Shown here one piece after another: positions 3,157-24,434 of a stretch of 64,000 bases of DNA. Every line of letters begins with the position of its first letter. Position 1 is the first letter of the stretch. Source of the DNA: Bacteroidota bacterium (lineage in GTDB: Bacteria; Bacteroidota; Bacteroidia; UKL13-3). Location: positions 142,050-206,049 of the forward strand of contig JAIXWD010000016.1 in NCBI GenBank assembly GCA_027482225.1, given 5' to 3'. A program made the position numbers and the translations under genes. The notes beneath the pieces were generated by a model. The model saw only the letters and a program-made list of their open reading frames with translations. It made no database searches and was not told the origin of the DNA.

Positions 3157-3864
3157 ATGTTAAGATTTCTTTATTTAGACGAACATGAATTGTGTCGTAT
3201 TGGTTTCAAAACCATTTTATCCGAAATTTCACCTTCATATATTTTAGATGATGCAGCTAACGCTGAGGAATTACTTAGCCTCTTTAAATTGCATTCACAC
3301 AGCATTGTTATAATTGAAATTAACCTCACTAATACCAATGTATACGAATTAGTTCTACAGATTCTAGAATTAAATGACAATTGTAAAATATTAATCTTGT
3401 CTTCTTTAAGTGAAAAACTATATGCCATTAATTACATTAAAATTGGCGTTAAAGGATTTGTAGCCAAATACGAATCGGCTAAAACTATTAAAGAAGCAAT
3501 TAATGCTATGGTTAATAATAAACGCTTTTTTAGTGATACTGTTATTGATATGCTTTTAAATTTATCTTACAATACACCACGCTCTAATTTGGCTGATAAA
3601 CCTCATGTTAATGGAAGTAATAGGGTAATAGTTCAGCCCAAACTTAGTTTAAAAGAAAGTGAAATATTAAGGATGATTTTACAAGGTATGGGTACCAAAG
3701 AAATTGCTAATGCAAATAGCATAAGATTAAATACCGTTAGCACATACAAATCGAGAATTTTTGAAAAATTTAACGTGAAAAATCTTGTTGAATTAATGCA
3801 AATTGTGAAACAAAATAACATGTATGATGCCTCAGGAATTGAACAGCATTATACACAATATTAG
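3157..3864 (+). CDS. Atypical LuxR/NarL-family response regulator with a Glu at the phospho-acceptor position
   Basis: The C-terminal LuxR-type HTH (ESEILRMILQGMGTKEIANANSIRLNTVSTYKSRIFEKF) is clear. The N-terminal receiver-like domain aligns to NarL with conserved Ser/Thr (ILSSLSE) and Lys (GFVAKYE). The acceptor Asp is replaced by Glu (IVIIEINL) and the acidic pair DD is DE. Confidence 0.75.
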   Translation: MLRFLYLDEHELCRIGFKTILSEISPSYILDDAANAEELLSLFKLHSHSIVIIEINLTNTNVYELVLQILELNDNCKILILSSLSEKLYAINYIKIGVKGFVAKYESAKTIKEAINAMVNNKRFFSDTVIDMLLNLSYNTPRSNLADKPHVNGSNRVIVQPKLSLKESEILRMILQGMGTKEIANANSIRLNTVSTYKSRIFEKFNVKNLVELMQIVKQNNMYDASGIEQHYTQY

Positions 3865-4036: not shown

Positions 4037-7000
4037 ATGTTTAAAGTTACATCAATTAGGGTAATAACACTACTGTTATTAGTTTTTATTCATTTTTCTG
4101 GTCATTCTCAAAATACTTTAGATGGTGTTGGTTTAACCGCAGCAACACCTTCTACAGTTTCATTTAGTTTACGTAAATTAAGTTCTTCATACTCGGGCCC
4201 AGCAATCCAAGTTAGGCGCAGTTCCGATAACGCCACACAAAATATTGGCTTTGATGTGAATGGTAACCTAGATACTGCTGCTCTTATTTCATGGGTGAGC
4301 AGTGGGTCTGGTTTTGTTTCTATTTGGTATGACCAAAGTGGTAATGGATTAAATGCTACACAAGCTACAGCGGCTAACCAACCAGCAATTGTCATTTCAG
4401 GTAATATTAATAGATATAATGGAAGAGTTGCCATAAGTTTTGATGTTATTAGCCAGCACTTTGCTATTTCTTCATTACCCAACACTTTGGTATGGACTAA
4501 CGGTGTATCATCCAATGCAGTTGTTGCATTTAATAATAATGCAAATTGGGCAAGAGTATACGATTTTGGAAATGGAGCAGGAAATAATAACATTCTACTT
4601 ACTCGCAATAGTACTAGTAATACAATAACATTTAGTTTATATGATGGAGGTAATACAACTGCACAACCTTCCGTAACCAATGCTATATCAACAGGCATCA
4701 ATAATATTTATACTACCATTCAGTCGGCTGCTACTTACCCTGGTTCAGCGGCAACCAATATACGCGTAAATGGATCGGCACAAACAACTGCTCCAGCAAC
4801 ATCTAATATCACCCAGCAGGTTACACGTACAAGTAATTTTATTGGCAGGAGCAATTGGAGTGGTGATGCCTATTTTAATGGCAGTATGCAAGAGTTGTTG
4901 TTTTTTAATGTTGCTTTAACAACAACTCAGGCTCAAACACTTGAAAATAGTCAAAGTAGTTACTATTCAATAAATCAACCAACTATCACAAGTACCGCAA
5001 CAGGTGGTAATTGGACAAGTCCTTCAACTTGGGTTGGAGGTGTTGTGCCAAGCAGCACTAATAACGTGGTAATTGCAACTACAGGAGCAAATGCTGTTAC
5101 ATTAAATACGACTGCTACTGTAAATAACTTGGTAATTAATAGTAACTCTAGATTAAATACCGGAGTAAATTCAATAAGTGTATCAGGAGCATTAACATGT
5201 AATGGGATAATATTAACAGCTAGTAGTCAAGGTGTAATTGGAACATTTCCCGGGTTACCATTAAATCGAATTATTTTAAATACGGGTTCTACTGTAGATT
5301 ACATCGGAACAACTTCACAAAATATTTCACCATTAACTTATGGTAATTTAACAGTAAGCAATACTTCTGCACCTAGCACTTTAACAGGTACAACAAGTGT
5401 AGCAGGAAATTTAACCATAAATACCTCTGCTATTTTAGATAAAAGTACTTTTGGTTTAACAGTTAGTAATACTATTTTTAATAACGGAACTTTTAGAACA
5501 AGTGGTGGACGACTTTCAACAGCTGGTGGTACTGCTTATAATTTAGCTTTTGCTACTGGTGCAAATACCTTAGATACTTTAATCGTGAATAGGTCAGCAC
5601 CCATTACATTAACTTCGCCATTAACTATAAATAACTTATTAACGTTAACCAGTGGTATACTAACGGTACCTGCTGGTAATTTAACCCTTTCAACTAATGC
5701 AATTGCAACAGGTGGTTCTAACACTGCATTTATAAACGGACAAGTAATTGTTAATACAAATACCACAAACAGCAGAAACATACCTTTAGGCAAAAACAAT
5801 TTACTTGGTTCAATATCTCTAATGCCTGAATCATCTGCGGCATCAACCTATACTTTAGAGTATTTTAATGGGGCTGGTGTTACTCCTAATTCAGGAAACT
5901 TAGGGGCAGGTTTAGCAGGTGTTGCTACCAATCAATTTTGGAGTATAACTAAAATTGGTACTAATGCTTCATTTACCTTCAATTACAATAGTTCACCGGG
6001 AGGTACCAATGCTCAACAAATTACATTAGTTAAGCGTACAGGAGGTCAGTGGGTTATACAACCAACCTATAGTAGTAGCATGGCTAACGCTTCTAGTGGG
6101 CAAGCCACATCTGTAAATGCCATTACTGGTAGTTATGGTGATTTTGGTTTAGGATTTATTAATGGAGCAGCTGAAAATGGTTTAGATAGTATAGGTTTAA
6201 CAGCCGCTACACCTGCTGCTGCAGCTTATGCCATGCGCAAATTAAGAAGTGCATACAATGGAGCTGCCTTACGTATTAGAAGAAGCAATGATAATTTAGA
6301 AACCAACATTGGTTTTGATGCAAATGGTCATTTAGATACAACTGCAATTAAAACTTTTACGGGTGTAAATGATGCTTATGTTACCACATGGTACGACCAA
6401 AGTGGTAATAACCGTAATTTTATACAAAACACCCTTGCCAACCAACCTCGAATTGTGTTAGCAGGTGTAATAGATCGTAAAAACGGACAGCCCGCCATTA
6501 GGCATTTGGCAGCAAATACCCATAACCTTAATGTTAATACAGGTGGTTTTGTAACCAATAATAACCCCTGGAGCGTAAGCACTGTATCTGGTTTAGATGG
6601 TGGTGCAAACCAAAGGGTGCTAAGTGGTAACACCAATTGGTTTTTAGGATTTCATGGTGGAGGTGAGAGAAGAGCCTTTTTTGCTAATGTATGGATGCGA
6701 TACAATGGGGTAGATAATTATAACAACGCCACAGCAACTACAAACAACCAAATATACACTGCCGTATCTAATGGAAGCAGCGCAAGTGTATTTAACAATG
6801 GTATGCAATTAGCGGGCACTGTGCCTTCAGGAAATACCTCAATTGGAACATTGTCTACAGGTGGTGGTTTTGGTGAATTCTCAAACTGTGTGGTTCAAGA
6901 AGTAATCATCTTTTCATCAGCTTTATCTTCAGCAAATAGAGCAAGTATAGAGCGAAGCCAAGGACTATATTATGCCATTGGTAATTTTGCCATAAGCACG

Positions 7001-10000
7001 CCTGCAGGTGGTAATTGGAGTAACCCAGCAACTTGGGAAAATGGGGTAGTGCCCACAACATCATCAGATGTGGTGATAAACGCAACAGCAGGTGCTGTGG
7101 TTTTAGATATAAATACCAGTATACGATCAATTAATAACGCACATTTGGCCACCCTAAATTTAGGAGCCGCCAATAACATTACAACGTCTTTAGATGTGAT
7201 TAACCAAGGCACATTAATTACTGCACATCCAAACGGATTAATAGGTAGTAGTGCATCTTTAAATATTGGTGGTACCATTTTAAATACGGCATACAATACC
7301 AGTCGTGTGGTATACAATGGAGCTAATCAATTGGTTAATCCGATATCTTATCGAAATTTAAGTTTATTAAATACGAGCAGTACAAAAACATTGCTTATAG
7401 GTTCGGTAACAACAGTTAGCGACACACTTTTTATAGATAATGGTGTTACGTTTAATAAATCAGCGAATGATTTAAACCTAGCTTGTTTAACTGGCACGGG
7501 TTTATTGTCATCTACAGGTGGTTTACTGCGTTTTAATACTTTTAATATTGCCAATATTGGAACATTACGCATGGCACCTGCTCCCAATAATTCTGTTGCA
7601 TTATTTATTTTATCTAATTTTTTCGCTAATGCATCTTTAACATTGGGTACACCATTGCAAGTAACAACAGATGCTACCTTAGATGCTGGAATTTTAAATA
7701 CCGATTCTGTAAACATATTAAGTCTAATAAATGCAAGTACTATAATGAGTAGGTGGAGCCCCGCTACATTTGTTAATGGCCCTGTTCAATTAATAAGTTC
7801 TTCTATTACCACAAGACAAATTGCAGTTGGTAAAAATGGTACGGGAAATCGAATTTTTATTACACCGCAATCTACTGCTACTACTGTATATAATATTGAG
7901 TATTTTAAAGGAAATGGCAGCGTACCTAACACGTCAAGTTTTGATAGTATTGGTTTGTTTAAAGTATATGATAACCAGTATTGGCGCATCAACAGAACAT
8001 CGGGTGTGGCTAATATTAGGGCTGAATTCGCTTTGAATACAGCTATTAACGGTGGCGTTGCCACAGAAACAGTAACTTTAGCCAATTTTGTGGGTGGTCA
8101 GTGGGTTTCTGTTCCAATTGATAGATTTTTATCGGCTACTGCAGCATTACCTACAGCTATTGCCACCCCTGTGGCAATTAGTAATACGGGGTTATTTGCA
8201 TTTGCCAGCGAAAAAGCAATTGCAACAGCACAAAGTGGCGCATGGAATAACCCCAACACATGGGCTGGTGGATTGGTACCCTCTGTATTTCAATCAACTT
8301 TTATTTCGCCTGGCCATACAGTTGCTGTTTCATCTGCGGCTGAAGCATTAAGTATTACGGTTGCTGCTGGCGCTACATTAGATTTAACTACCAACCAAAT
8401 TACTGGAACCTCGAGTGGTATAATAAATAATGGCACAATATTAACTTCACGCAATGCAGGTTTAATAGGAAGTGGCGCATCTTTACCTGCATGCAATACA
8501 ACTAATACCATTTTAAATGCTGGCAGTAGGGTTATTTATAACGGTGGAGGAGCACAAACAATAAGTGCTCTTACCTACAGGAAATTAACCATAAACAATT
8601 CAGCTTCTACTAAAACATTAGCCGGTAACACGGTTGTTTCCGATTCTTTAACTATTAGTACATTATGTACACTAAATAAAGGGGGATTTAATTTAAATTT
8701 AAACAATGGTATTTTTGGTAGCGGATTTTTACAATCAACAGGTGGTGCTTTTACACTTAGTGGTAATGCATTAAGAAACACCATACAGCTAAATAATTTT
8801 GCCAATACTACAATAAATATTAACTCAACGGCATCTGTTACTGATGTTAGTGCAATTACCCACAGTGGTTTAACTTTAAACATGCAAGCAACTGGTGCAA
8901 CCGACACTGTAAATTTAGTTACACCGCTTTCTGTTGCAAATATTTCGTTGTCTTCAGGATTCATTAAAACAGATTCCATTAATATTTTAACATTAACCGG
9001 AAACGGTACTTATGGTTCAAATGCTTCATACATTAATGGACCTGTGCAGTTTAATACCAGTTCAACCAACAACGTAATACTTGGTTTGGGTAAACAGGGC
9101 ACTTCAAGTAATGTAATAATTACCCCAACTACATCAGTTGCTACCGTTTGGCGAGCAGAGTACTATAGAAGTACACCAACTGCCGCACCTTTAGCTTCTA
9201 ATTTGTTGGGTTTAGGTAATAATCATTATTGGACACTAAGCAGAAACAACACCAACAACGCCATAGTTTCTGTTGGTATTAATCAAGCTGCTGGTGGCAC
9301 ATCTGCCAATACTTTAAAGATGGCTATGTTTACCAACAATACGTGGGGTAATGTACCCATAACAGAAAATACAATATTGGCTAATACCAATATAGCTACA
9401 ATAACATCAGCATCAAGTGTGGTTTTAAATAGCAGTGCTGGTGAAATAGATTATTTCGCATTAGGATTTGGCTCATTGCCTGGTGCACTTCACACTATTG
9501 CAAATGGTAATTGGACTAATCCTGCAATATGGAGCACCAATATTGTTCCATCTACAGGCGATAGCGTAACCATACGCACAGGTTTTACTGTAAATTTAGA
9601 TACAACTATTTTACCAGGTACAGGTCCAAGCACAGTATTAATTCAAACAAATGCTAAACTTAATATCAATTCGGGAGTTATATATTACAACTCTGGAGCT
9701 AATAATAATTTAGTACAAAGCTTAATAACTACAGGTGCTAATCCTTCTGTTGTGTTGGGTTTAAGAAGGCTTTCATCAACATACAATGGTCCTGCAATAC
9801 AGGTAAGAAGGGGTAGTGATAATGTCCTACAAGATGTATTTTTTACATCAGCTGGTAATTTAAATACCAGCACCTTATTGAATTTTGCAGCGGGTTCAAG
9901 TTTGTTTGTGGTAAGGTGGTACGATCAATCTGGTAATGGAAGAGATTTTGTACAAAATACGCCAGGTAACCAACCACGAATTGTAAACAATGGGGTATTA

Positions 10001-13000
10001 GAAATCAAAAATAACCAACCCGCCATAAGGCACATAGCCGCTAATAACAATTTCTTATTTGGTGGTTCGTTGGGTTTAGCTAATAATTTCTTTACCGTAA
10101 ATGTAGTGTCTTCTAATGATGGCGCCACAACAGGCCGGATGTTATCATCTGAAGCCAATAATTGGATGCTAGGCTTTCATCCGGGTATAGAACGTACTGC
10201 ACATTTTGGTGGTGGGAATTGGCAAGTTTACAACACACCTACTACCCCAGCTAACCAAATTTATACCGCTGTTGGTCAAAATACTAATAATGCATTAATA
10301 TATAGAAACGGAACTTTACTACCATTATTGGCTGTGCCATCTAACCGCCCAATTGATTTGAGAACCGCAGGAGCTTATGCTCAGTGGGCTGATGGAACCA
10401 TGCAAGAAATAGTAATTGTACCAACTGCATTAAATGATGCTCAAAGGAACTCAATTGAAAATTCGCAACAATCTTATTATTTAAATGGGGTTTCATTTAT
10501 AACAACTAATGGTATCATCAACAATGGTACAATAGGAATTGCAGATGCCAACGGGTTAGATTCTGCTGTTGTTGGTACTGGTCCAATTTTTAATTCAAGT
10601 TCAACTTTAAATTACAATGGTAGCAGTCAAAATATAACAGCAGTTGTAGCTTCCAATTTGGTATTATCTGGTTCGGGTACTAAAACAATGGTTGGCGATG
10701 TTACTGTTACAGGAAATTTAACGGTTAACAGTGGAATAACGTTTAACAAATCAAACCGCAACTTAAGTTTTTCAGGAACCACCATTACCAATAATGGTAT
10801 AATGCAATCTACGGGAGGTACTTTATCACTTACAGGTAGTGGTAACATTAACATTGGGTTTAATGATGCTACAAATAATGTGTTAGGTAATTTAGTATTA
10901 AGCAGGGGAGGTTCTCATACGCTAACAAATCCTTTAACGATTAATACAAGTATTGCATTAAACAATGGTATTTTAAATACTACAGTTACAAATATAATTA
11001 ACCTTGGTGGCAAAGCAACTACAATAGGTGGCAGTAATACCAGCCACATCAACGGGCCATTAAATTTAATTACAAATTCCTTGTTTCAAAGAACTGCACC
11101 TATAGGTAAAAACAATATGTATGCTCCAGTTCAAATTCAACCACAAACACAAACACAAACAACATACACTGTGCAATACTTTAATGGTGCAGGTGTTACA
11201 CCAAATTCCAACAACAGAGGCCCAGGTATTATAGGTGTTGCAACCAACCAATATTGGAGTATTACCAGAAATAACAGTAACAATGCCATTGTAGGTGTTG
11301 GTTTTAACACAAGTGCAGGTGGTACCAGTGCACAGCAATTGGTGCTAGCCAACAAAATTATCAACACTTGGACACGTAACTCAGTAAACAATACCATATT
11401 AGGTAATGCAATATCAGGTAATTTTGCAACGCAAAGTTTTGTTTCAAATTTTGGTGATTTTACTTTAGGTTACACAAGTGCGTTACCAGATAATGGCTTG
11501 GATAGTTTGGGATTGAATAACACCACAACAACTTCACTTGCTTTAAGCCTACGCAGGTTAAGAAGTGCTTACCAAGGCCCTGCTATAAGGGTTAATCGTT
11601 TAAGAGATTCTGCCGAATTAGACATTTATTTCCAAGACAATGGTTTTTTAGATACCTTAACCTTAAAGAATTTTGCAGCAGGCGCAACAGGAGAAAACTT
11701 GGTTACGTTTAGCGAGGATTTTGATAATTCGGTTTACATCAGAAATGGATCCTCAGCATACAGTATTTTTCCTAATGTAGCCCTTTCACCAATTGGCACA
11801 CTTACTGCCGATTCTATGAACCTAGGTCGCACCAATGGGCAGTGGGATGTGTTTCGTCAAATAAATAATTTAGTAATTGGGCGTACCTATACTTTGTCTA
11901 TGTATATAAGGCTAGGTACTGCCAATAATTTTAATGTGGTTGTAAATAATACCGCTGCTTGGAACACCATTGGTGGTAATTCTTATAATGCCAGCAATGC
12001 CTCATTAAATAATGCAACATGGCAGCGCATAAGCTATACTTTTGTTTGCCCTGCAACCGGTAGGGTTAACGTGCATTTAGGTAGCCATGGCGGTAATCAA
12101 ACTGGCGTTACAGCACAAAGCAATGGTTCTGTTTATATTTGGGGTTTTCAGCTAGAAGAAGGGAGTTCTGCTAATATGTATATTGCCACTGGGCCAATTA
12201 GCATACTTAATTCCGTTAACGTAAAAACATGGTACGATCAAAGTGGTAATGGAAGGCATGCAGTACAAAATAATATTTTTTTACAACCCACTTTAACCTT
12301 AAATGGTGTAATTAATTACATGAATAACAAACCATCTATGTTATATGATGGTGTTGATGATGGTTTTTTAATTAATAACATACCAACAGTTAATAACAAT
12401 GTAAATAGCTTATTCTGGGTGCAACGCGCTACAAAAAACACATACATGAATTTATTCCCTAATACATCTCCCTCAAACGGAATAATCAATTCGGGTAATA
12501 GAATGTTGTTAGCCAGTTTAGGCGATGGAAGTACGGACGTAATAACGGGATTAACCAATAATATTTCCTCGTTTTTAATTAATGGTTTCCAAACAGGTTG
12601 GAGCTCATCTACCACGCGAAATGTGGTTCATCAAGCTTTACAATTTAATCCGTCTATTGTTAATTCGTTAAACCAGCCGTTTAACTTTAATGGTAATATG
12701 GTAATAGCTAACGGACATACAGGTTGGAATTTTGGTGGTGATATGCCCGAAATAGTGGTAACTACTTCTACGTTAGATAGTGCAAGACGCGTTGCGGTTG
12801 AATTAAGTATGGGCAGGTATTATGGCATTGTTACCAAAGAAAGTGATGCTTGGGTAAGTACAGATGTTGGTGGAAACTGGAGCGATATCAATACTTGGGT
12901 ACAAAACTCTGTACCACCTGCAGGAGCAGCTATTGCCATTGCAACAAAGGGAAATAATAGTGTAGTATTAGATACAACCATGACATTCTCTGGTATTACC

Positions 13001-16000
13001 GTGCGTGCAGGTGCAACCCTTAATTTAGGCAATAGTAGAACAACCACATTAAGCGGCCAATTAATTAATAATGGAACTATTATCACATCACATCCTAATG
13101 GTTTAACTGGTGTTTCTGCATCTGTAGTAGGAACAGTAACGCATAATATTGGAAGTACAATTATTTATAATGGTAGCAGCCAAATAGTCACTCCAACAAG
13201 TTACCGAAACTTAAGGGTAAGTGGATTAAATACCATAAAAACAATGGCAATGGGGGCATTAACAGTAAATGATACCCTTACTATAGATTCTGGAGTAACG
13301 TTTGTACAATCAAACAGTGCATTAACTTTAAACGGTAATATATCTGGTACTGGTTTTTTACGACCTAATCCAAGCAATGCAATAAGTATTGGTGGGGGTA
13401 ATGGTGGTAATTTCGGAACTATTCATTTTGATACCCTTACTAATATGAATATAGTGGGTACATTTACTTTAAATAGATCTGGAATTAATCCGTCACTAAC
13501 ACTTGGAAATAACTTACAAGCAAACTCATCAGTTAACCTAAACAATGGATTATTAAATACAAGTAATGGTGCCCTACTAATATTAAATAATATTGGTACA
13601 ATTGGTTCAGGTGGTTCGTATATTAATGGCCCTGCTAGGTTAATTAATGCATCAACTAATACAAATAGAACGATTCACGTAGGTAAAAATGGTCTTTTAG
13701 GAGCAGTTACAATCAATCCTGGTGCAACAAGTTCTACCTCTTGGGATGTTCAATACTTTGGAAGTACACCTGCAAATATTGGTAATGTTAGTGGTACTAT
13801 ATCATCATTAAGCCCAACACAGTATTGGAGTGTAACCAAAAACAGCTCACCAGCTGCAAGTCCAATTTTAGCATTTAATTTTAACCAAGCTCCGGGCGGG
13901 TTGGCAACATCAAGTTTGGCATTGGTAAGGTATCTAACCAATTGGCAGTTGGTGCCTGTTACAGCAAATAGCCTTAATGGTTTATCAGCAAGTGGTACCT
14001 TAACTACTTCTGGTTCTGTATCGTTTCCTGTTGGAGTAAATGGCAATGATTTTGCAATTGGTTATCCAGCACCATTTGAAACTAAAAAATCGGGTAATTG
14101 GAGAGATACATCTGTATGGGTTATGGGTGCAGTTCCTCCTTTGGGTTCAAGGGTATTTATAAGAGCTTCTCATGTGGTTACCGTAGATACTACAATTGCA
14201 ACAGCAGGTACACCATCAAGTATATCTATTTTAAATGGAGGGGAGTTGGTATTCAATTCAATAAATACAATTGGTGCTGTGGCAAGTGGAGTAACTGTTG
14301 CAGGAACTTTAACCACTGCTCATGCTGGTGGAATTAGCACAAGTATAGCGGGCACTATTACCTTTAGTAATGGTAGCCGTTTACGCTACAATGGAGCAGC
14401 TCAAAATGTAACAGCGATAGATTGTGAAGAGCTTGTATTAGAAGGTTCTGGAACAAAAACGCAAACAGGAGCAATATTGGTGAACGATACATTATTAATT
14501 GGTAATGGAATTACGTTTGCTAATTTAACACAAACACTTACTCTATATGGTAATTATGTGTCAAATGGTGGAGGCATAAGTAGCAGCAATGGGAATATAA
14601 TTGTTGGTGGATCGTTAGGTGGTCATTTTGGTAGTTTAAACTTATCTGGAACATTGGCAAACTTTACATTTAGAAGATATGGATCATCACCATCTTTAAA
14701 TGTGGTTAATCCGTTTAGCGTAGCTAATTTAGTTATCGAAAATGGGATAATAAACACAGATACTAACAATGTAATTACATTAACAGGATCGGCAACTTTA
14801 GGTTCATCATCTGCCCATATCAATGGTCCAATAAGGGTAATAACCACATCAGTTTCACCTTTAATTTTACCAATTGGTAAAGGAGGAATTTTAGGTTCTA
14901 TTAATTTTACTCCAAGTACCGCTTCAACAACAACTTGGTATGCCGAGTACTTTAATGCGGCACCAGGAAATACCAATGTTGATACAACCATTAGTTCAAT
15001 AAGTGCATCACAATATTGGTTGTTTAGCCGCTTATCAGGTACAGCCAATGCCGCAGTTACTTTTAATTTTAATAAATCTGCAGGAGGTAACTCATCACAG
15101 GCAATTACTTTAGCACGTTTTGCTTCATCAGCTTGGACACTTCAAAATACGGCATTAAATAATTTAAATGGTGCCACCGTAAATGGTTCATTAAGTTTGC
15201 CAACGCAATCTTTATTCAGTTATTTCGGTGTTGGGTTTTTTAATGAGTTTTTTTCTGTAGCCTCTGGCAACTGGTCTAGTCCTTCTACTTGGAATACCAA
15301 TTCGGTTCCTACATCATCTGCTCGAGTTACCATAAATTCAGGACATGTTGTTAATGTTTTAGGTACCATTAATCCTAAAAGTATAATAATAGAGGCAAAC
15401 GCCCAACTTAACTTAGATACTTTCCAAGTAATTGGTCAGGATGTTACAGTTGATTTAATAGGTACAATTGAAACGGCTCGTGCAGGTGGGTTAATAGGCA
15501 CAGGTGCATCCATTGAACAAGGTAATATTTTGTTAGGTTCATTCGCCAAGGTAGTATACAATGGCTCGGTTCCGCAAGTATTATCGCCATTAAGTTACCG
15601 TAAATTGGTTATAGCAAATCCAGCGGGAGTAACAGCAGGTAACAATCTTATACTTGGCGATTCATTCATTGTATCTTCAGGATTTTTAAATCTCTCAACA
15701 TTCAATCTTACATTAACCGGTGGCTTTAATATGGAATCTAATGCTAGGGGTATTAGAGCAAGTGGAAACAATAACATACAGATTTCATCATCAGGTAATC
15801 TTATGATGGATACCACTGTTAGAGGTGTTACAAATAGGTTGGCTAACTTAACTATAACTGGATCTAATTTAGTAACGCTTTTAAATTTCCTTGAGGCCAA
15901 AGTAGAAGTTAGTGTGAGTGGAGCTAATTTAAACAGCAATGGATTTCTAACATTAATTTCTGATTCATTAGGCACTGCAAGAGTAGCTGCATTGGTATCG

Positions 16001-17662
16001 CCTGCTCAAATAACAGGTAATGTAATTGTGCAGAGGTATATTCCTGCTATAACCCGTAGATCTCGACAGCTTACTTCACCAGTGACTGGTTTTACCTATA
16101 ATCAATTAATTGATGACATTTTCGTTACTGGCCCTGTCGGTGGTATAGGATTCGATATTTCTACTACCAATAATGCATCAATTAATACTTATAACGAACA
16201 AACATCTAACGGAAGGGGCAATAAACCAGTCCAAAATATTAATGACACATTGTTGCCAGGTTTAGGGGCTTTTGTTTTCATTAGGGGAGACCGAACTCTT
16301 CCTTCGCCACAATGGTTTACTCCACCGTTTGTGCCACAAAATGCAGTTACATTAGATTTTGTTGGACCAATTAATCAAGGAGTAGTTTCTCCGCAAATAA
16401 CCTATACACCCACAGGTACACCAACTAATGATGGTTGGAATATGGTAGGAAATCCTTTCCCATCACCAATTGATTGGAGCTTGGTAAATAAAACTGGTTT
16501 AACACCTTTTTACTATACACTAAATCCTTCAACAGGTTCATCTGTGGCTGCTAATGTAGGTATTATAGCATCTGGTCAAGGTATATTTGTACAAGCCTCA
16601 TCAGCTAATCCTACCATTACTTTTAGTGAGTCTTCAAAAGTTTCTGGTACTCCTACAAATTATTTTAAAACCAGTACACCGCCATTATTAATTACCATGA
16701 CAAGGGATGCATTAAATAGTGATGTTGCTATGATGAATTTTAATGCAACATATAGCAGGTCATTTAACAATATGGAAGATGCCTTTAAAATGACAAATGC
16801 TGTTATAAATCTTTCTTTATATGCTGGTACAACGCCTGTTCAAATAAATGGTTTACCAATATTATCTCCATTGGCAACTGATACGTTTGATATAGGTGTA
16901 GATGCTTCTGCTGGTAATTATTCTTTACGATTTAATAATTTAATTGCTATACCAACTGGCTTAAATAGTTATTTAATAGATAGGATGCTTAATACCACTT
17001 TACCAATAGTTGCTGGTGTTGATTATCCGTTTAGTATATCAAGCAGCCCTGCATCGTTTGGTAAAAGATTTGCGATTGTTTTTTCTCCGCTTAATCCTTT
17101 ACCTATTAAGTTACTTAGCTTTAATGCAGCTAAAAGTAATGATAACGTGGTGTTAAATTGGCGCACAGCTTCCGAGTTAAATATGCAAAGTCATATTTTA
17201 GAAAGAAAACTTAGCACTGATTTAACATTTAAAGAAATAGCAGTTATTAAGCCTAATACGGGTGCAGTAGTTGCAACTAACTATGCATACACCGATGCTG
17301 ATATACTAAATAATGCCAGTGGTTTAATATGCTACAGGATAAAGTTGGTAGAAACAAATAAATCATCGTTAAACAGTCATGTTGTTTGTATAGATCCAGT
17401 CATTACAACATCTGCAGCCAACATTTTACTGTTACCAAACCCAGCTCAAGAGGGCGATGTGGTAAAATTAAAAATAGCAGGTTTACAATACGATAGTTAT
17501 GAAATACATGTTGTTGATCTGCTAGGAAGAGTAATACATAAGCAACTAAGTACTACAAACGATATAGATATTGATACCAAACAATTTGATTCTGGTATTT
17601 ATAATATTTTGTTGTTGTCTGATGGCGTTTTGTTGGGAACATCAAAGTTATCAATACAATAA
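4037..17662 (+). CDS. Giant (4541 aa) T9SS-secreted cell-surface protein containing signal peptide, repeated LamG-like jellyroll domains, seven beta-solenoid-like supermodules, one CBM-like insertion, a conserved pre-CTD domain and a type-A T9SS CTD
   Basis: Uninterrupted 13.6 kb ORF. The N-terminal signal peptide is MFKVTSIRVITLLLLVFIHFSGHSQ. The motif (R/K)(K/R)L(S/R)S.Y.GPAI.V.R..D followed by WYDQSGNG....QP.IV recurs at ~4325, 6389, 9917 and 12229. Seven G(G/N)W..P.TW..G.VP...D.V.I motifs occur at ~5004, 7007, 8237, 9506, 12869, 14093 and 15266, each followed by YNG..Q.V...SYR.L, INGP and EYF.G...YW motifs. The C-terminus (LLPNPAQEGDVVKLKIAG...GIYNILLLSDGVLLGTSKLSIQ) is a Por secretion tail. 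Confidence 0.85.
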   Translation: MFKVTSIRVITLLLLVFIHFSGHSQNTLDGVGLTAATPSTVSFSLRKLSSSYSGPAIQVRRSSDNATQNIGFDVNGNLDTAALISWVSSGSGFVSIWYDQSGNGLNATQATAANQPAIVISGNINRYNGRVAISFDVISQHFAISSLPNTLVWTNGVSSNAVVAFNNNANWARVYDFGNGAGNNNILLTRNSTSNTITFSLYDGGNTTAQPSVTNAISTGINNIYTTIQSAATYPGSAATNIRVNGSAQTTAPATSNITQQVTRTSNFIGRSNWSGDAYFNGSMQELLFFNVALTTTQAQTLENSQSSYYSINQPTITSTATGGNWTSPSTWVGGVVPSSTNNVVIATTGANAVTLNTTATVNNLVINSNSRLNTGVNSISVSGALTCNGIILTASSQGVIGTFPGLPLNRIILNTGSTVDYIGTTSQNISPLTYGNLTVSNTSAPSTLTGTTSVAGNLTINTSAILDKSTFGLTVSNTIFNNGTFRTSGGRLSTAGGTAYNLAFATGANTLDTLIVNRSAPITLTSPLTINNLLTLTSGILTVPAGNLTLSTNAIATGGSNTAFINGQVIVNTNTTNSRNIPLGKNNLLGSISLMPESSAASTYTLEYFNGAGVTPNSGNLGAGLAGVATNQFWSITKIGTNASFTFNYNSSPGGTNAQQITLVKRTGGQWVIQPTYSSSMANASSGQATSVNAITGSYGDFGLGFINGAAENGLDSIGLTAATPAAAAYAMRKLRSAYNGAALRIRRSNDNLETNIGFDANGHLDTTAIKTFTGVNDAYVTTWYDQSGNNRNFIQNTLANQPRIVLAGVIDRKNGQPAIRHLAANTHNLNVNTGGFVTNNNPWSVSTVSGLDGGANQRVLSGNTNWFLGFHGGGERRAFFANVWMRYNGVDNYNNATATTNNQIYTAVSNGSSASVFNNGMQLAGTVPSGNTSIGTLSTGGGFGEFSNCVVQEVIIFSSALSSANRASIERSQGLYYAIGNFAISTPAGGNWSNPATWENGVVPTTSSDVVINATAGAVVLDINTSIRSINNAHLATLNLGAANNITTSLDVINQGTLITAHPNGLIGSSASLNIGGTILNTAYNTSRVVYNGANQLVNPISYRNLSLLNTSSTKTLLIGSVTTVSDTLFIDNGVTFNKSANDLNLACLTGTGLLSSTGGLLRFNTFNIANIGTLRMAPAPNNSVALFILSNFFANASLTLGTPLQVTTDATLDAGILNTDSVNILSLINASTIMSRWSPATFVNGPVQLISSSITTRQIAVGKNGTGNRIFITPQSTATTVYNIEYFKGNGSVPNTSSFDSIGLFKVYDNQYWRINRTSGVANIRAEFALNTAINGGVATETVTLANFVGGQWVSVPIDRFLSATAALPTAIATPVAISNTGLFAFASEKAIATAQSGAWNNPNTWAGGLVPSVFQSTFISPGHTVAVSSAAEALSITVAAGATLDLTTNQITGTSSGIINNGTILTSRNAGLIGSGASLPACNTTNTILNAGSRVIYNGGGAQTISALTYRKLTINNSASTKTLAGNTVVSDSLTISTLCTLNKGGFNLNLNNGIFGSGFLQSTGGAFTLSGNALRNTIQLNNFANTTININSTASVTDVSAITHSGLTLNMQATGATDTVNLVTPLSVANISLSSGFIKTDSINILTLTGNGTYGSNASYINGPVQFNTSSTNNVILGLGKQGTSSNVIITPTTSVATVWRAEYYRSTPTAAPLASNLLGLGNNHYWTLSRNNTNNAIVSVGINQAAGGTSANTLKMAMFTNNTWGNVPITENTILANTNIATITSASSVVLNSSAGEIDYFALGFGSLPGALHTIANGNWTNPAIWSTNIVPSTGDSVTIRTGFTVNLDTTILPGTGPSTVLIQTNAKLNINSGVIYYNSGANNNLVQSLITTGANPSVVLGLRRLSSTYNGPAIQVRRGSDNVLQDVFFTSAGNLNTSTLLNFAAGSSLFVVRWYDQSGNGRDFVQNTPGNQPRIVNNGVLEIKNNQPAIRHIAANNNFLFGGSLGLANNFFTVNVVSSNDGATTGRMLSSEANNWMLGFHPGIERTAHFGGGNWQVYNTPTTPANQIYTAVGQNTNNALIYRNGTLLPLLAVPSNRPIDLRTAGAYAQWADGTMQEIVIVPTALNDAQRNSIENSQQSYYLNGVSFITTNGIINNGTIGIADANGLDSAVVGTGPIFNSSSTLNYNGSSQNITAVVASNLVLSGSGTKTMVGDVTVTGNLTVNSGITFNKSNRNLSFSGTTITNNGIMQSTGGTLSLTGSGNINIGFNDATNNVLGNLVLSRGGSHTLTNPLTINTSIALNNGILNTTVTNIINLGGKATTIGGSNTSHINGPLNLITNSLFQRTAPIGKNNMYAPVQIQPQTQTQTTYTVQYFNGAGVTPNSNNRGPGIIGVATNQYWSITRNNSNNAIVGVGFNTSAGGTSAQQLVLANKIINTWTRNSVNNTILGNAISGNFATQSFVSNFGDFTLGYTSALPDNGLDSLGLNNTTTTSLALSLRRLRSAYQGPAIRVNRLRDSAELDIYFQDNGFLDTLTLKNFAAGATGENLVTFSEDFDNSVYIRNGSSAYSIFPNVALSPIGTLTADSMNLGRTNGQWDVFRQINNLVIGRTYTLSMYIRLGTANNFNVVVNNTAAWNTIGGNSYNASNASLNNATWQRISYTFVCPATGRVNVHLGSHGGNQTGVTAQSNGSVYIWGFQLEEGSSANMYIATGPISILNSVNVKTWYDQSGNGRHAVQNNIFLQPTLTLNGVINYMNNKPSMLYDGVDDGFLINNIPTVNNNVNSLFWVQRATKNTYMNLFPNTSPSNGIINSGNRMLLASLGDGSTDVITGLTNNISSFLINGFQTGWSSSTTRNVVHQALQFNPSIVNSLNQPFNFNGNMVIANGHTGWNFGGDMPEIVVTTSTLDSARRVAVELSMGRYYGIVTKESDAWVSTDVGGNWSDINTWVQNSVPPAGAAIAIATKGNNSVVLDTTMTFSGITVRAGATLNLGNSRTTTLSGQLINNGTIITSHPNGLTGVSASVVGTVTHNIGSTIIYNGSSQIVTPTSYRNLRVSGLNTIKTMAMGALTVNDTLTIDSGVTFVQSNSALTLNGNISGTGFLRPNPSNAISIGGGNGGNFGTIHFDTLTNMNIVGTFTLNRSGINPSLTLGNNLQANSSVNLNNGLLNTSNGALLILNNIGTIGSGGSYINGPARLINASTNTNRTIHVGKNGLLGAVTINPGATSSTSWDVQYFGSTPANIGNVSGTISSLSPTQYWSVTKNSSPAASPILAFNFNQAPGGLATSSLALVRYLTNWQLVPVTANSLNGLSASGTLTTSGSVSFPVGVNGNDFAIGYPAPFETKKSGNWRDTSVWVMGAVPPLGSRVFIRASHVVTVDTTIATAGTPSSISILNGGELVFNSINTIGAVASGVTVAGTLTTAHAGGISTSIAGTITFSNGSRLRYNGAAQNVTAIDCEELVLEGSGTKTQTGAILVNDTLLIGNGITFANLTQTLTLYGNYVSNGGGISSSNGNIIVGGSLGGHFGSLNLSGTLANFTFRRYGSSPSLNVVNPFSVANLVIENGIINTDTNNVITLTGSATLGSSSAHINGPIRVITTSVSPLILPIGKGGILGSINFTPSTASTTTWYAEYFNAAPGNTNVDTTISSISASQYWLFSRLSGTANAAVTFNFNKSAGGNSSQAITLARFASSAWTLQNTALNNLNGATVNGSLSLPTQSLFSYFGVGFFNEFFSVASGNWSSPSTWNTNSVPTSSARVTINSGHVVNVLGTINPKSIIIEANAQLNLDTFQVIGQDVTVDLIGTIETARAGGLIGTGASIEQGNILLGSFAKVVYNGSVPQVLSPLSYRKLVIANPAGVTAGNNLILGDSFIVSSGFLNLSTFNLTLTGGFNMESNARGIRASGNNNIQISSSGNLMMDTTVRGVTNRLANLTITGSNLVTLLNFLEAKVEVSVSGANLNSNGFLTLISDSLGTARVAALVSPAQITGNVIVQRYIPAITRRSRQLTSPVTGFTYNQLIDDIFVTGPVGGIGFDISTTNNASINTYNEQTSNGRGNKPVQNINDTLLPGLGAFVFIRGDRTLPSPQWFTPPFVPQNAVTLDFVGPINQGVVSPQITYTPTGTPTNDGWNMVGNPFPSPIDWSLVNKTGLTPFYYTLNPSTGSSVAANVGIIASGQGIFVQASSANPTITFSESSKVSGTPTNYFKTSTPPLLITMTRDALNSDVAMMNFNATYSRSFNNMEDAFKMTNAVINLSLYAGTTPVQINGLPILSPLATDTFDIGVDASAGNYSLRFNNLIAIPTGLNSYLIDRMLNTTLPIVAGVDYPFSISSSPASFGKRFAIVFSPLNPLPIKLLSFNAAKSNDNVVLNWRTASELNMQSHILERKLSTDLTFKEIAVIKPNTGAVVATNYAYTDADILNNASGLICYRIKLVETNKSSLNSHVVCIDPVITTSAANILLLPNPAQEGDVVKLKIAGLQYDSYEIHVVDLLGRVIHKQLSTTNDIDIDTKQFDSGIYNILLLSDGVLLGTSKLSIQ
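4990..16100 (+). repeat. Seven diverged intragenic tandem supermodules of ~1.2 kb (~400 aa) within the giant gene, repeated at protein level
   Basis: The ordered motif series GxW..P.TW / YNG..Q / INGP / EYFxG..YW recurs seven times. There are no long identical DNA repeats, so the duplication is ancient or diversified. Confidence 0.6.
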
Positions 17663-17679: not shown

Positions 17680-18324
17680 ATGAATTTGGCATATCAAATT
17701 ATTATAAAGAGGGGAGTTTTTTTCAGTTTATTATTTTTAACAGCTTTCGATTCCATAGCCCAAAGCGCTTATGGTCAAGCGGGGGATGATGATATCTATA
17801 GTGACTATGGTTATCAGTATTCAAACTATTCTAATTCTGTTTATGAGTTTTCTGAAGAAGAAAAATATAGAAAAAGGCAAGAACGGTTTTATAAAAAAAG
17901 CTACGATGAAGAAGATTTATATAATGGTGGATACAGGGTGAAAAGTCGTTCATCGGAAGTTGATTATTACGCTTTTGGAGGTATTGGCTCAGGTAATATT
18001 GGTAATAGCGTTAAATCATGGTTTAATAGAGACAGTAAAAATGAATCACCTTTACCGAGTAACCAAGAAAAATATAACAACAACGAGGTTGGAACAATTG
18101 ACGGCATTGATAGGTTGGGTGAGGATGGAAAAAGCGGTTTAGCCAACAACAAAGATAATGGTGAGATTTTACAACCAAAAGATGATAAACAAACCGAAAC
18201 CGCACCACCACCGCCAGATGAACCTGATATTCCAATTACAAGTCCTTTATTAAGTATACTCATGATTGTTATAATGATAGGTGTAGCTGTTTTTAACTTA
18301 TCAAACAGATTTAAGATATTATGA
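17680..18324 (+). CDS. Tail-anchored secreted protein that is acidic, Tyr/Asp/Glu/Asn-rich low-complexity, and has a Pro-rich stalk and C-terminal transmembrane helix
   Basis: It has a signal peptide (FFSLLFLTAFDSIAQSA), low-complexity acidic region, PPPPDEPDIP stretch and a C-terminal hydrophobic helix (LLSILMIVIMIGVAVF). It starts 18 bp after the giant gene's stop codon. Confidence 0.55.
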   Translation: MNLAYQIIIKRGVFFSLLFLTAFDSIAQSAYGQAGDDDIYSDYGYQYSNYSNSVYEFSEEEKYRKRQERFYKKSYDEEDLYNGGYRVKSRSSEVDYYAFGGIGSGNIGNSVKSWFNRDSKNESPLPSNQEKYNNNEVGTIDGIDRLGEDGKSGLANNKDNGEILQPKDDKQTETAPPPPDEPDIPITSPLLSILMIVIMIGVAVFNLSNRFKIL

Positions 18325-19457
18325 AAATTAAAACTCTTGTTTTAACTTTAGTTTTGTTTTGTGCATCAACATGCATAGATGTGCAATCACAATCATTATT
18401 TGATAAGAGTACAATAACTGCCCATTCATCTTTAGGTAGAAATTACATCATTAATAATGAATTAGGTAATCCGGGAATGACTTGGACATTGGGCACCTTA
18501 TTTAATTTGGCTAATGTAGTTACTTTAGGATCTAATTACGCTGTGGGGAGTTCTAGCGGTGTAGAAGCTGAGGGAAGTTACAGAAATTCATTTAGAATTT
18601 ATGATGTTGATATTGGGTATATTAAAACATTTAAAAATGCAAAAAGCAACATAATAAATAAGTCATCACTTTCTATTTGTGGTGGTGTTGCACTTTTTCA
18701 TACTAATATTAATTCTTGGAGTGTTAAAAAGGGACTTGCAATATACGATATGTCTTTTTTCTCCTATAAGTTAGGAGCTGGCTACTCTTATAAATTAAAC
18801 GAATTATTAACAGCTAAGGCCAATGTTTCATATTATTTAACATTAACTAATTTATTAGATGGTTTAAACACTGGTAGTAAAGATGATTTACTGGTTTTTT
18901 CGTTAGGCCTTGGTTATAATATAAATGCTTTTGATGCGAGAAAGGAAAGATTACTCCTTTACAATGCGATTCAAGAAAACATAACTATAAACAACAAATT
19001 GTTAATGGAGATTGCAAAAATTGATGGTCAAAGTAAACAAGGAATTAAGAATAATGAATCTCAAAATGGATTAGTAAATGTTAAATCGGATTCAATCTTT
19101 AAAGACAAAGCAGTTAACAATTCAGATTCTTTAAAAATACCTTTAAGTTACACACTTGAAAATGCACCAGAAAAAAATAACGATTCAGTTAAGTATACTA
19201 TAAAGTACCCCCGACATAAATACAATGTAGTATTCGGAGGCTTTTTTAGCATAAAAAATGCACTTTCTGAAGTTGCAAAGATGAAGAAATCTGGTATTAA
19301 TGCTGAGCCCTATTGGAAAGGAGATAAAAGTAAACTGGTGTTTTTAGTTGTTTTCTCTAGTAATGATTATCAGGAAGCCCAAGAGAAGGTTAGATCTTTT
19401 AGGAAAAAGGGATACACTGATGTATGGTTATATACATCTAATTCAACCAAAAAATAA
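18321..19457 (+). CDS. Outer-membrane beta-barrel protein fused to a C-terminal SPOR (septal peptidoglycan-binding) domain
   Basis: It has a signal peptide. The N-terminal ~200 aa show alternating amphipathic beta-strand character with Y/G-rich turns, as in OMP beta-barrels. The C-terminal ~75 aa (YNVVFGGFFSIKNALSEVAKMKKSGINAEPYWKGDKSKLVFLVVFSSNDYQEAQEKVRSFRKKGYTDVWLY) fit the SPOR pattern. Its start overlaps the upstream gene by 4 bp (ATGA). Confidence 0.55.
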   Translation: MKIKTLVLTLVLFCASTCIDVQSQSLFDKSTITAHSSLGRNYIINNELGNPGMTWTLGTLFNLANVVTLGSNYAVGSSSGVEAEGSYRNSFRIYDVDIGYIKTFKNAKSNIINKSSLSICGGVALFHTNINSWSVKKGLAIYDMSFFSYKLGAGYSYKLNELLTAKANVSYYLTLTNLLDGLNTGSKDDLLVFSLGLGYNINAFDARKERLLLYNAIQENITINNKLLMEIAKIDGQSKQGIKNNESQNGLVNVKSDSIFKDKAVNNSDSLKIPLSYTLENAPEKNNDSVKYTIKYPRHKYNVVFGGFFSIKNALSEVAKMKKSGINAEPYWKGDKSKLVFLVVFSSNDYQEAQEKVRSFRKKGYTDVWLYTSNSTKK

Positions 19458-19463
19458 TTTTAA

Positions 19464-20177
19464 ATGAATATTCAAAATCAATCAGAATTTGATTCGAGGT
19501 ATGATTTATTCTTACATGCTGCTCACGAATTAAACACTCCTTTAACGTCTTTAGTAATGGCAACCTTTTTATTAAAGAACGATAAGACGAATTTTGAAAG
19601 TAGGCAAAAATTTTTAAATAGCGTAAATGTTATTGAACGTTCTTGTGATAGACTTCAACGAACCATAAATAATGTAATTCTTTATCATCGATTACAACAA
19701 CCTAATTTCCCAGTATACGATCAAAAGTTAGTAGAGGTGCTTTTTCTTATAAGAGAATGCGCAGAAAAAATATCAAATCAACAAGGTAGAACTGGTGATA
19801 TTGTTTTTAATTTTTCTTTAGATTCTGATGTTGGGTTGTTAATTCCACGTGAATATTTTATGGTAATGATTAATGAGTTAATTCATAATGCATTTAGCTT
19901 TTCTGAAGTTGGATCAAAAGTTATAATCAATTATAGACTATCAAATAAATTTGGTGTTTTTTCTATTACCGATTTTGGCATTGGTATGGGAAAAGAAGAG
20001 GTATCGGCAATAGGTGCTTATACTCAATTTAACAGAGGAATATTGGAACAACAAGGCTTAGGGTTAGGGTTAACTTTAGTGAAACAATTAACGGATAAAC
20101 ATTTTGGTGAGTTAAAGATTAACTCTAGTAAAGGAAAAGGTACAACCGTTCAGTTATGTATTCCTTTGTATTGTTAA
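19464..20177 (+). CDS. Minimal cytoplasmic histidine kinase with HisKA H-box and HATPase_c, lacking sensor and transmembrane domains
   Basis: The H-box (HELNTPLTSL) begins at residue ~21. The N box is NELIHNAF, G1 is DFGIGMG and G2 is GLGLGLTLV. It has no hydrophobic segments. An in-frame stop immediately upstream precludes a longer N-terminus. Confidence 0.75.
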   Translation: MNIQNQSEFDSRYDLFLHAAHELNTPLTSLVMATFLLKNDKTNFESRQKFLNSVNVIERSCDRLQRTINNVILYHRLQQPNFPVYDQKLVEVLFLIRECAEKISNQQGRTGDIVFNFSLDSDVGLLIPREYFMVMINELIHNAFSFSEVGSKVIINYRLSNKFGVFSITDFGIGMGKEEVSAIGAYTQFNRGILEQQGLGLGLTLVKQLTDKHFGELKINSSKGKGTTVQLCIPLYC

Positions 20178-20973: not shown

Positions 20974-21927
20974 TTATTTTCTTTTGATAACACGCTCAAC
21001 TGCAGCTACAATATGTGCTGCATCTAACCCGTATTCTTTCATTAATTCATCAGGGGTTCCGCTTTGTCCGAAGCTATCATTTACAGCTACCATTTCTAAT
21101 GGAGTTGGTAATTCTCGAGCCAGTAATTGGCAAATGCTATCACCCAAACCACCGTTCATTTGGTGTTCTTCGGCAGTAACTACTGCGCGGGTTTTACGAA
21201 CACTATTTAATATGGCCTGAGCATCTAATGGTTTAATGGTGTGTATATTTATTAGCTCTACACTAATTCCCTTTTCGGCAAGTATATGACCTGCTTCAAT
21301 GGCTTGCCACACTAAGTGTCCTGTGGCGAAAATAGTTACGTCTGTTCCCTCATTTAACATTAATGCTTTACCAATTTCAAACTTATCTGTAGCACTAGTA
21401 AAGTTAGGCACAGCCGGACGTCCAAAACGTAAGTAAACTGGGTTTTCGTAATCTGCAATAGCAATAGTTGCAGCTTTGGTCTGGTTGTAATCACATGGGT
21501 TAATTACAGTCATATTTGGTAACATTTTCATTAACCCAATATCTTCTAAAATTTGGTGTGTTGCACCATCTTCGCCAAGAGTAACCCCCGCATGTGAAGC
21601 ACAAATTTTAACATTTTTATTGGAGTAAGCTACACTCTGACGAATTTGATCATATACGCGGCCTGTACTGAAATTAGCAAATGTTCCTGTAAACGGAATT
21701 TTACCACCAATGGCCAAGCCTGCTGCTAGTCCAATCATATTGGCTTCAGCAATACCTACTTGATAAAAACGTTCAGGATGTTCTTTCTGAAAAGCATCCA
21801 TTTTAAGAGAGCCTGTTAAATCTGCACAAAGTGCTACTACATTAGGGTTAGTTTTACCTAACTCGCTTAGGCCCGCTCCAAAACCCGAACGGGTGTCTTT
21901 TATGTTTTGTACTTCAAACTTTTTCAT
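20974..21927 (-). CDS. Transketolase, C-terminal (pyrimidine-binding) subunit of the split transketolase
   Basis: There is strong family similarity (GIAEANMIGLAAGLAIGGKIPFTGTFANF; split-transketolase C-terminal half). Confidence 0.85.
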   Translation of the reverse strand: MKKFEVQNIKDTRSGFGAGLSELGKTNPNVVALCADLTGSLKMDAFQKEHPERFYQVGIAEANMIGLAAGLAIGGKIPFTGTFANFSTGRVYDQIRQSVAYSNKNVKICASHAGVTLGEDGATHQILEDIGLMKMLPNMTVINPCDYNQTKAATIAIADYENPVYLRFGRPAVPNFTSATDKFEIGKALMLNEGTDVTIFATGHLVWQAIEAGHILAEKGISVELINIHTIKPLDAQAILNSVRKTRAVVTAEEHQMNGGLGDSICQLLARELPTPLEMVAVNDSFGQSGTPDELMKEYGLDAAHIVAAVERVIKRK

Positions 21928-21978
21928 GTATCAAATAATATTCTTTTTTTATTGTGTTGAATACTTTTTTGTATTCTT

Positions 21979-23364: not shown

Positions 23365-23382
23365 GGAATAAATAATTGTACT

Positions 23383-24228: not shown

Positions 24229-24434
24229 TGTATACTTTTTATTTATTTTTTTATCCTGTTTTAGTTTTATGATACTGATAAACAGTAATATAAAGCTTTG
24301 TGTGCACCTATTATTTACATCAAAAGTAACACTTACCACTCTTTTTTATCATTTTTGTTGCTAACATTTTAGCTACATCGTTTATTGCCTATATTTTAAT
24401 GGTGATGCGTTTTAGGATAAAAACCTAACCAATT

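Follow-up and report, generated by a model that had tools for sequence, protein, structure and literature searches.

What does an outer-membrane barrel that carries a SPOR domain at its C-terminus do beside the gene of a giant secreted protein? The question is raised by a stretch of 64,000 nucleotides (nt) from a Bacteroidota bacterium (GTDB lineage Bacteria; Bacteroidota; Bacteroidia; UKL13-3; GenBank assembly GCA_027482225.1, contig JAIXWD010000016.1, positions 142,050 to 206,049), here called the window. In it, a gene for a 378-amino-acid (aa) protein, termed the barrel-SPOR protein below, lies at 18321..19457 on the + strand, close to the gene of a 4541 aa protein with internal repeats that is a cargo of the type IX secretion system (T9SS; 4037..17662, +). 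An earlier sequence-only reading had proposed a small outer-membrane protein (OMP) barrel fused to a SPOR domain, and a dedicated partner that might anchor or export the giant protein. Our analysis indicates that the protein is best read as an integral, OmpA-like outer-membrane protein in which a SPOR-fold domain takes the place of OmpA_C. It is neither a translocation channel nor a PorP/SprF homologue. As to its role, we put at about one half the probability that it is an OmpA-like outer-membrane-to-wall tether recruited as an accessory to a surface-protein cassette.

The open reading frame runs exactly from 18321 to 19457, as the sequence-only reading had placed it, and we regard it as a real gene because the protein is conserved in 5 close relatives (44-93% identity) and in some 30 distant ones. 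Its ATG lies in the ATGA at 18321-18324 and overlaps the stop codon of an upstream gene for a 214 aa protein (17680-18324). The barrel-SPOR gene had been described as directly downstream of the giant gene; this intervening gene corrects that statement. Residues 1-24 (18321..18392) read as a signal peptide, with an MKIK n-region, a hydrophobic core and a likely cleavage site VQS/QS that places Gln at +1, and the AlphaFold2 (AF2) model has a low-confidence helix spanning residues 2-28. A lipoprotein reading based on Cys14 and Cys18 was dropped because these residues are not conserved among relatives: the signal peptide of P0003 (ALS/QS) has no Cys at all, and there is thus no conserved lipobox. 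The window protein gave no match to the double-psi beta-barrel (DPBB) domain either, and thus has neither the lipobox nor the DPBB that an RlpA-like protein would carry. NCBIfam returned no match for it.

For the N-terminal region the sequence-only reading had suggested structure prediction as a check on the proposed barrel, and AF2 predicts a barrel there, not a soluble domain. Residues 25-205 (18393..18935) form eight strands by DSSP assignment of the model (31-44, 52-63, 67-82, 85-103, 115-134, 138-158, 163-173 and 189-200). A Foldseek search against the PDB ranked the OmpA transmembrane (TM) domain first (E 1e-10, template-modelling score 0.79), followed by Ail, NspA, OmpX and the N-terminal domain of OprF. 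The 8-stranded N-terminal transmembrane barrel that marks the OmpA family is therefore present by both AF2 and Foldseek. At the sequence level the Pfam family OMP_b-brl matches residues 64-200 below its threshold (E 0.002, 18.7 bits against a cut-off of 28.7). Asp180, Asp188 and Gly196 are near-invariant across the family and lie in or just after the predicted outer loop 4; T176 and L179 are further residues of the conserved loop-4 motif. Such conservation suggests that the outer face or the upper lumen of the barrel holds a conserved site.

The barrel is followed by a periplasmic spacer, residues 206-292 (18936..19196), modelled as a low-confidence helix over 206-248 and then as disorder. With about 90 residues in the window protein, it falls within a range of 57-265 aa among relatives. 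A coiled-coil stalk was considered and rejected: the heptad score of the helix at 206-250 is 0.46, against 0.49 ± 0.07 for shuffled sequences, and the coiled-coil Pfam matches in distant relatives are all sub-threshold. Because heptad periodicity does not rise above the shuffles, we describe the spacer as flexible and not as a coiled coil.

The C-terminal region had been suspected of being a SPOR domain, and several comparisons bear this out for a diverged SPOR-fold domain at residues 300-372 (19218..19436). In the full-length model a beta-alpha-beta-beta-alpha-beta unit occupies 303-372, preceded by a disordered stretch up to about residue 300. Modelling of the C-terminal 86 residues alone, from a 26-sequence alignment of the domain (A3), gave the same order of elements with a predicted local distance difference test (pLDDT) score of 91 and a predicted template-modelling score of 0.80. 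The domain thus has the RNP-like fold of about 70 aa that characterises SPOR. Among Foldseek matches to this model, SPOR domains lead (CwlC, DedD and RlpA, with DamX and FtsN lower), and the uncharacterised structure 6ozd stands second. In fold-match scores, DamX reached 4.8, DedD 4.3 and FtsN 3.6, with every other non-SPOR fold at or below 4.7. Supporting this assignment, the A3 profile searched against PDB sequences found CwlC (E 4e-4) and FtsN (E 0.04) as its only natural matches, and hhalign aligned the domain with genuine E. coli FtsN 243-319 at E 4.7e-4 in the expected register. Designed TIM barrels also appeared in the profile list and were set aside as repeat artefacts; a single-sequence phmmer search of the domain yielded such artefacts only, and the full-length profile found nothing meaningful among PDB sequences. 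The Pfam SPOR model (PF05036) matches residues 300-367 at E 0.096 and 13.5 bits, below its gathering threshold of 21. Homology of the window domain to SPOR is nevertheless supported transitively, because a profile of the close family reaches the SPOR regions of distant relatives at E 1e-6 to 1e-7 and because of the hhalign match to FtsN. The hidden Markov model searches that the sequence-only reading had proposed thus had a mixed outcome, with sub-threshold matches to OMP_b-brl and SPOR and none to PorP/SprF or OmpA; for OmpA_C (PF00691), neither the window protein nor the five close relatives in alignment A1 had a match at E <= 1.

Does the domain keep the ligand of well-studied SPOR domains? 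In FtsN, Q251 (RlpA Q270) and R285 (RlpA R309) contact the free lactyl carboxylate of N-acetylmuramic acid (NAM), the hallmark of denuded glycan; W283 of FtsN is merely hydrophobic and is Leu in RlpA, the side chain of S254 is dispensable, and in DamX the Trp W416 in beta4 stacks on NAM (PMC6895207). In the hhalign register, the window protein has V304 in place of Q251 and F342 in place of R285. The Q251 equivalent is Val or Ile nearly throughout the barrel-SPOR family (hhalign, A3); the R285 equivalent remains Arg in one branch of the family only, described below as the mutS branch, and is hydrophobic throughout the other, to which the window protein belongs. Family-wide, the W283 equivalent is Leu and the S254 equivalent Gly, and W369 in the last strand of the domain is invariant. 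Because the Gln and Arg equivalents are replaced in the window protein, binding to denuded septal peptidoglycan cannot be assumed for its SPOR domain, and its wall ligand may differ from that of FtsN and RlpA.

The barrel-SPOR proteins make up a rare, unnamed and unannotated Bacteroidota family. A word-indexed search among 5.8 billion proteins yielded no more than five relatives, all of them unnamed and with identities of 44-93%, and a second word-indexed homology search with a wide alignment added nothing; an exhaustive profile search of 1.84 billion representatives yielded 35 relatives at E <= 1e-3, most of them full-length. They share one layout, a barrel of about 180-200 aa, the spacer of variable length and a C-terminal domain of about 85 aa, and the near-invariant residues D180, D188, G196, Y301 and W369, a pattern to which the window protein conforms. 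In a Pfam scan of 37 family members, SPOR was matched in 14 (best E 3.4e-10) and OMP_b-brl in 8. Every member whose source name was checked is called "hypothetical", and the genome matches are Bacteroidota metagenome-assembled genomes.

Two branches can be told apart. Members of the mutS branch (P0012, P0019) are encoded by a stand-alone gene, X, between a SpoU methylase gene and mutS in the core-genome context rpmB-rpmG-ftsY-rimO-bshC-SpoU-X-mutS. These genes lie at 10001-11329 in L007-L009, and L014 holds two paralogues, at 5925-7358 and 8001-9371. Their SPOR domains exceed the Pfam threshold (24-27 bits), and their spacers are longer and more varied, some of them Pro-rich. In these Bacteroidota, the protein of this branch is a candidate for a general tether between outer membrane and wall, or for a division tether. 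The cassette branch, composed of the window protein and P0001-P0014, has SPOR domains below the Pfam threshold, with no Pfam SPOR match in P0006, P0009 and P0010.

The mutS branch bears directly on one alternative, namely that the window protein, too, serves as a general tether for the envelope or for division, binding septal or lateral peptidoglycan in the manner of RlpA, Pal and OmpA with no particular relation to the giant protein, and that its neighbours are there by hitch-hiking. Stand-alone relatives with canonical SPOR domains agree with this account, as do the loop-4 motif (D180, D188) common to both branches and the occurrence of cargo and small-protein pairs in loci that lack a barrel-SPOR gene. 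Hitch-hiking, however, is an unlikely explanation for neighbours that are kept in all six cassette loci at 20-56% identity and in three gene orders, or for the overlaps of translational-coupling type that join the barrel-SPOR gene to the small-protein gene in the window and to the kinase gene in L011. We consider this alternative unlikely on balance.

The arrangement of the cassette itself supports recruitment. In the window, the giant gene is followed after 18 nt by the gene of the 214 aa small protein, which overlaps the barrel-SPOR gene by 4 nt; a histidine kinase (HK) gene (19464..20177, +, 237 aa) starts 6 nt past the barrel-SPOR stop, and a gap of 220 nt then separates it from a convergent gene. 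The same partners recur in relatives. L001, whose barrel-SPOR protein is 56% identical to that of the window, has the order cargo-small-barrel-HK, and the contig of P0005 (48%) has a protein of >731 aa, then a 220 aa protein, the barrel and an HK. L005/L006 (22%) shows type-A cargo-barrel-small-HK, and L010 (20%) shows type-A cargo-small-barrel-REC-HK, where REC is a receiver domain. In L015 (23%) the order is cargo-small-pseudoHK-59 aa-barrel. Shorter stretches preserve parts of the arrangement: small-barrel-REC-HK in L011 (22%), with a 4 nt overlap between barrel-SPOR and kinase genes, pseudoHK-barrel in L012 (20%) and small-barrel in L004 (27%). Cargo, small protein and kinase or pseudokinase are thus linked to the barrel-SPOR gene in 6/6 cassette-branch loci with enough flank (window, L001, P0005 contig, L005/L006, L010 and L015), in the three orders small-barrel-HK, barrel-small-HK and small-pseudoHK-barrel. 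Because four families are kept together through three gene orders and down to about 20% identity, the neighbourhoods provide strong evidence that the barrel-SPOR gene is functionally linked to its cassette partners.

Within this linkage, the tightest pairs are the cargo module with the small protein and the barrel-SPOR protein with the kinase, and the window lineage combines both. The pairing follows from L016, L017 and L018, in which the small protein follows the cargo and no barrel-SPOR gene or kinase occurs within 10 kb (the L018 contig carries the same protein, P0070, as L016 and is perhaps not an independent case). Directly beside the barrel-SPOR gene, it is the kinase and not the cargo that recurs most constantly. 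The earlier proposal of a dedicated cargo partner is therefore upheld only as far as the conserved linkage goes; the cargo and small-protein pairs that lack a barrel-SPOR gene, the closer kinase neighbour and the stand-alone mutS branch speak against dedication.

The giant protein had been named a T9SS cargo, correctly: it ends in a type A C-terminal sorting domain (CTD; residues 4467-4528, 17435-17620) that matches TIGR04183 and PF18962. The domain is part of a conserved C-terminal cargo module of about 600 aa (residues ~3920-4541, 15794..17662) that is common to the cargos of 5/6 cassette loci. The window module is 41% identical to that of L015, 38% to that of L005 and 33-37% to those of L016 and L017; the L018 cargo lay outside this comparison, and the L010 cargo resembles the module over its last ~190 aa only (27%). 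The module-bearing cargos of L005, L015, L016 and L017 are much shorter than the giant, at 772-1767 aa. The rest of the giant consists of internal repeats, including three partial matches to the catalytic domain of GH54 arabinofuranosidase B and a G8 domain. Type A sorting domains (TIGR04183, with PF18962 also found) are likewise present in the L005 and L010 cargos.

An outer-membrane protein encoded in the operon of such a cargo, with a linkage that is conserved, recalls the PorP/SprF proteins. It could accordingly be a cargo-specific T9SS secretion partner, equivalent to PorP/SprF or to PorP plus PorE, that the giant needs for secretion or attachment; PorE of P. gingivalis is a T9SS precedent for a peptidoglycan-binding outer-membrane component. 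The comparison fails on several points. The window protein has no match to PorP/SprF (PF11751, TIGR03519) at E <= 1 in Pfam or NCBIfam, and none of the 37 family members has one at E <= 0.01, which agrees with the earlier remark that it lacks the PorP signature. PorP/SprF-type partners go with type B CTD cargos, whereas the window, L005 and L010 cargos are type A, and related cargos occur with no barrel-SPOR gene nearby. Finally, 8-stranded barrels of the OmpA/OmpX type have no channel able to pass a protein of 4541 aa, so that the suggested role in exporting the giant is implausible. We consider a secretion partner of this kind very unlikely.

The small protein (17680..18324, +) belongs to a family of 48 clusters in which every source name given is 'hypothetical'. 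Its members have a signal peptide, then a low-complexity region rich in Tyr and acidic residues, in which the motif Y-RKRQERFYKKSY-EEDLYNGGYR is conserved, and at the C-terminal end a Pro motif, a TM helix and a short basic tail. The Pro motif, PPPPDEPD[IV]P (PPPPDxPD[IV]P in general form, with an invariant PPD-PD-P core; PPPPDEPDIP in the window), stands directly before the helix. This tail resembles a tripartite C-terminal sorting signal in the style of PEP-CTERM, but an equally good reading is a proline stalk anchored in the inner membrane. In every locus with readable flanks, a T9SS type-A cargo gene is adjacent or close by (small-protein gene at 2752-3387 in L001, 8252-8869 in L005, 9432-9956 in L010, 4052-4672 in L015, 10001-10639 in L016 and 10001-10618 in L017). 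A metagenome scan from the small protein with a second alignment gave 5 loci, mostly short.

The cassette kinases are homologous across loci (30-37% identity). That of the window is a bare HisKA and HATPase_c core, with neither a TM segment nor a sensor domain, and those of L010 and L011 carry an N-terminal receiver domain. The homologues in L015 (4669-5370) and L012 (1-678) align over their full length; their H-box His is replaced by Gln, their N, G1 and G2 boxes are lost, and they have no Pfam match. They are therefore pseudokinases, yet are still kept beside the barrel-SPOR gene. Just ahead of the giant gene, and on its strand, is a gene for a NarL/LuxR-type response regulator (3157..3864), such that regulator and kinase bracket the cassette in the window genome. 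The regulator is a possible partner of the cassette kinase.

This arrangement lends itself to a signalling interpretation, in which the barrel-SPOR protein and the small protein, placed in the inner membrane, would report the state of the surface or wall, for example the load of giant adhesin, to the kinase, and the LuxR-type regulator would control the operon. The bracketing genes fit such a circuit, the kinase or kinase-like gene is the most faithful immediate neighbour of the barrel-SPOR gene, and a kinase with no TM or sensor domain needs external input. However, no physical path across the inner membrane is evident, with a cytoplasmic tail of only ~4-10 residues in the small protein. Phosphotransfer cannot be universal in the system, given the boxes lost in L015 and L012; the receiver domains of the L010 and L011 kinases suggest input from another kinase; and no NarL/LuxR-type regulator was found upstream of the L005 or L010 cargo. 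We regard signalling as doubtful. A bolder version appears quite unlikely to us: that the four genes make up an unrecognised envelope-spanning system of Bacteroidota, in which the barrel and the proline-stalk protein couple the surface giant to the kinase for contact or mechanical sensing, with SPOR repurposed beyond denuded glycan.

Comparison of the window with L001 suggests how the parts of the barrel-SPOR protein have evolved. Around a divergent segment, the DNA of the locus is some 90% identical between the two. The 3' end of the cargo gene stands at 88-97%; identity then falls to 75-77% in the region for the N-terminal portion of the small protein and to 57-69% at ~18230-19120, a segment that encodes the TM tail of the small protein together with the barrel-SPOR signal peptide, barrel and spacer. 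Further on, SPOR domain and kinase are back at 83-93%. Among the encoded proteins and domains, the barrel (51%) and spacer (45%) stand against the SPOR domain (88%), kinase (90%), cargo C-terminus (92%) and small protein (70%). The sharp edges of this divergence island suggest that either recombination has replaced a module or a barrel exposed at the surface has come under diversifying selection. The SPOR domain is under strong constraint, or purifying selection, and we therefore take it to be functional despite its unusual binding face. Overall, the pattern fits a surface-exposed barrel joined to a constrained periplasmic binding domain.

With the domain anatomy, the family, the conserved cassette and the selection pattern shown, we propose a plausible mode of action for the recruited OmpA-like tether. 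The barrel would sit in the outer membrane with both termini facing the periplasm, and the flexible spacer would let the SPOR-type domain reach the peptidoglycan layer, such that the protein could staple the outer membrane to the cell wall, a task that OmpA carries out through a different domain and RlpA through a different anchor. Within the cassette branch, the giant surface protein or its envelope complex would most likely gain an outer-membrane platform that is anchored to the wall.

Several observations weigh against this proposal. The full-length AF2 model, built on six close sequences, has a modest mean pLDDT of 59, its topology being clear. The cassette-branch SPOR domains score below the Pfam threshold, and the residues that read out denuded glycan are replaced in the window protein; peptidoglycan binding by it is suggested by fold and homology. 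Contact between barrel and cargo is putative, and the loci L016-L018 hold the cargo and small protein with no barrel-SPOR gene within 10 kb. The stand-alone mutS branch, finally, makes a general envelope role possible.

Other features of the window were noted. A promoter and terminator scan gave counts below those of shuffled sequences in this AT-rich DNA; the scan does not model Bacteroidota promoters. Two further genes bear T9SS sorting-domain signatures: a 517 aa protein with a Reg_prop repeat at 7-1560 (+), with a sub-threshold Por_Secre_tail match (22.8 bits against 27), and a 687 aa endonuclease I family protein at 26025-28088 (+), whose sorting-domain match exceeds the threshold (30.8 bits). 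On the opposite strand, 20974-24339 (-) contains a transketolase split into two genes, for the N-terminal and the pyrimidine/C-terminal halves, with the gene of a 461 aa von Willebrand factor A (VWA) domain protein between them, an arrangement that is also found in L001.

The attachment of the outer membrane to the wall is less mapped in Bacteroidota than in Proteobacteria. To our knowledge, all characterised SPOR proteins are anchored in the inner membrane, anchored as lipoproteins or secreted. Full-text literature searches that paired the SPOR domain with T9SS, with Bacteroidetes beta-barrels or with outer-membrane tethers did not turn up an integral outer-membrane barrel fused to SPOR. The barrel-SPOR family is a compact candidate tether, and its cassette branch defines a module of four genes, open to testing, that surrounds very large T9SS surface proteins. 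If the loss of Gln and Arg has changed the SPOR ligand, the range of what SPOR folds recognise would be broader than has been thought; if the barrel anchors the cargo, surface retention of type A CTD proteins would have a route that differs from attachment to anionic lipopolysaccharide (A-LPS).

Among known systems, RlpA is an outer-membrane lipoprotein that combines a DPBB lytic transglycosylase domain with SPOR. The window protein differs from it in being anchored by an integral barrel, in having no detected enzymatic domain and in carrying Val and Phe as the equivalents of Q270 and R309. FtsN, DamX, DedD and CwlC are bitopic inner-membrane or secreted proteins; with their SPOR domains (PF05036) the window domain shares the fold and profile-level homology, and its W369 recalls W416 of DamX, but it scores below threshold (13.5 against 21 bits) and lacks the Gln and Arg that meet the lactyl carboxylate. 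To PorP/SprF with PorE it is similar in being an outer-membrane protein encoded near a very large T9SS cargo, with a connection to peptidoglycan such as PorE has; it differs in having no homology to them, in its 8 strands as against the larger PorP-type barrel, and in a cargo of type A instead of type B. Dma is a precedent from the same phylum, likened by design, in which a small outer-membrane barrel is connected to a regulator in the cytoplasm. In Dma, however, one polypeptide spans both membranes and controls an extracytoplasmic function (ECF) sigma factor, whereas no part of the window barrel protein lies in the inner membrane or the cytoplasm, and the gene beside it encodes a histidine kinase. 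In design the window protein resembles OmpA of E. coli and OprF, with which it shares the whole order of parts: signal peptide, 8-stranded barrel, flexible hinge and C-terminal periplasmic wall-binding domain. Its wall module has the SPOR fold and not that of OmpA_C, its spacer is far longer and variable, and no sequence homology is detectable beyond the generic OMP_b-brl clan. Seen beside these proteins, an OmpA-like tether with a diverged SPOR domain introduces no new principle; what it offers to work on the T9SS and the cell envelope is a clean, testable module.

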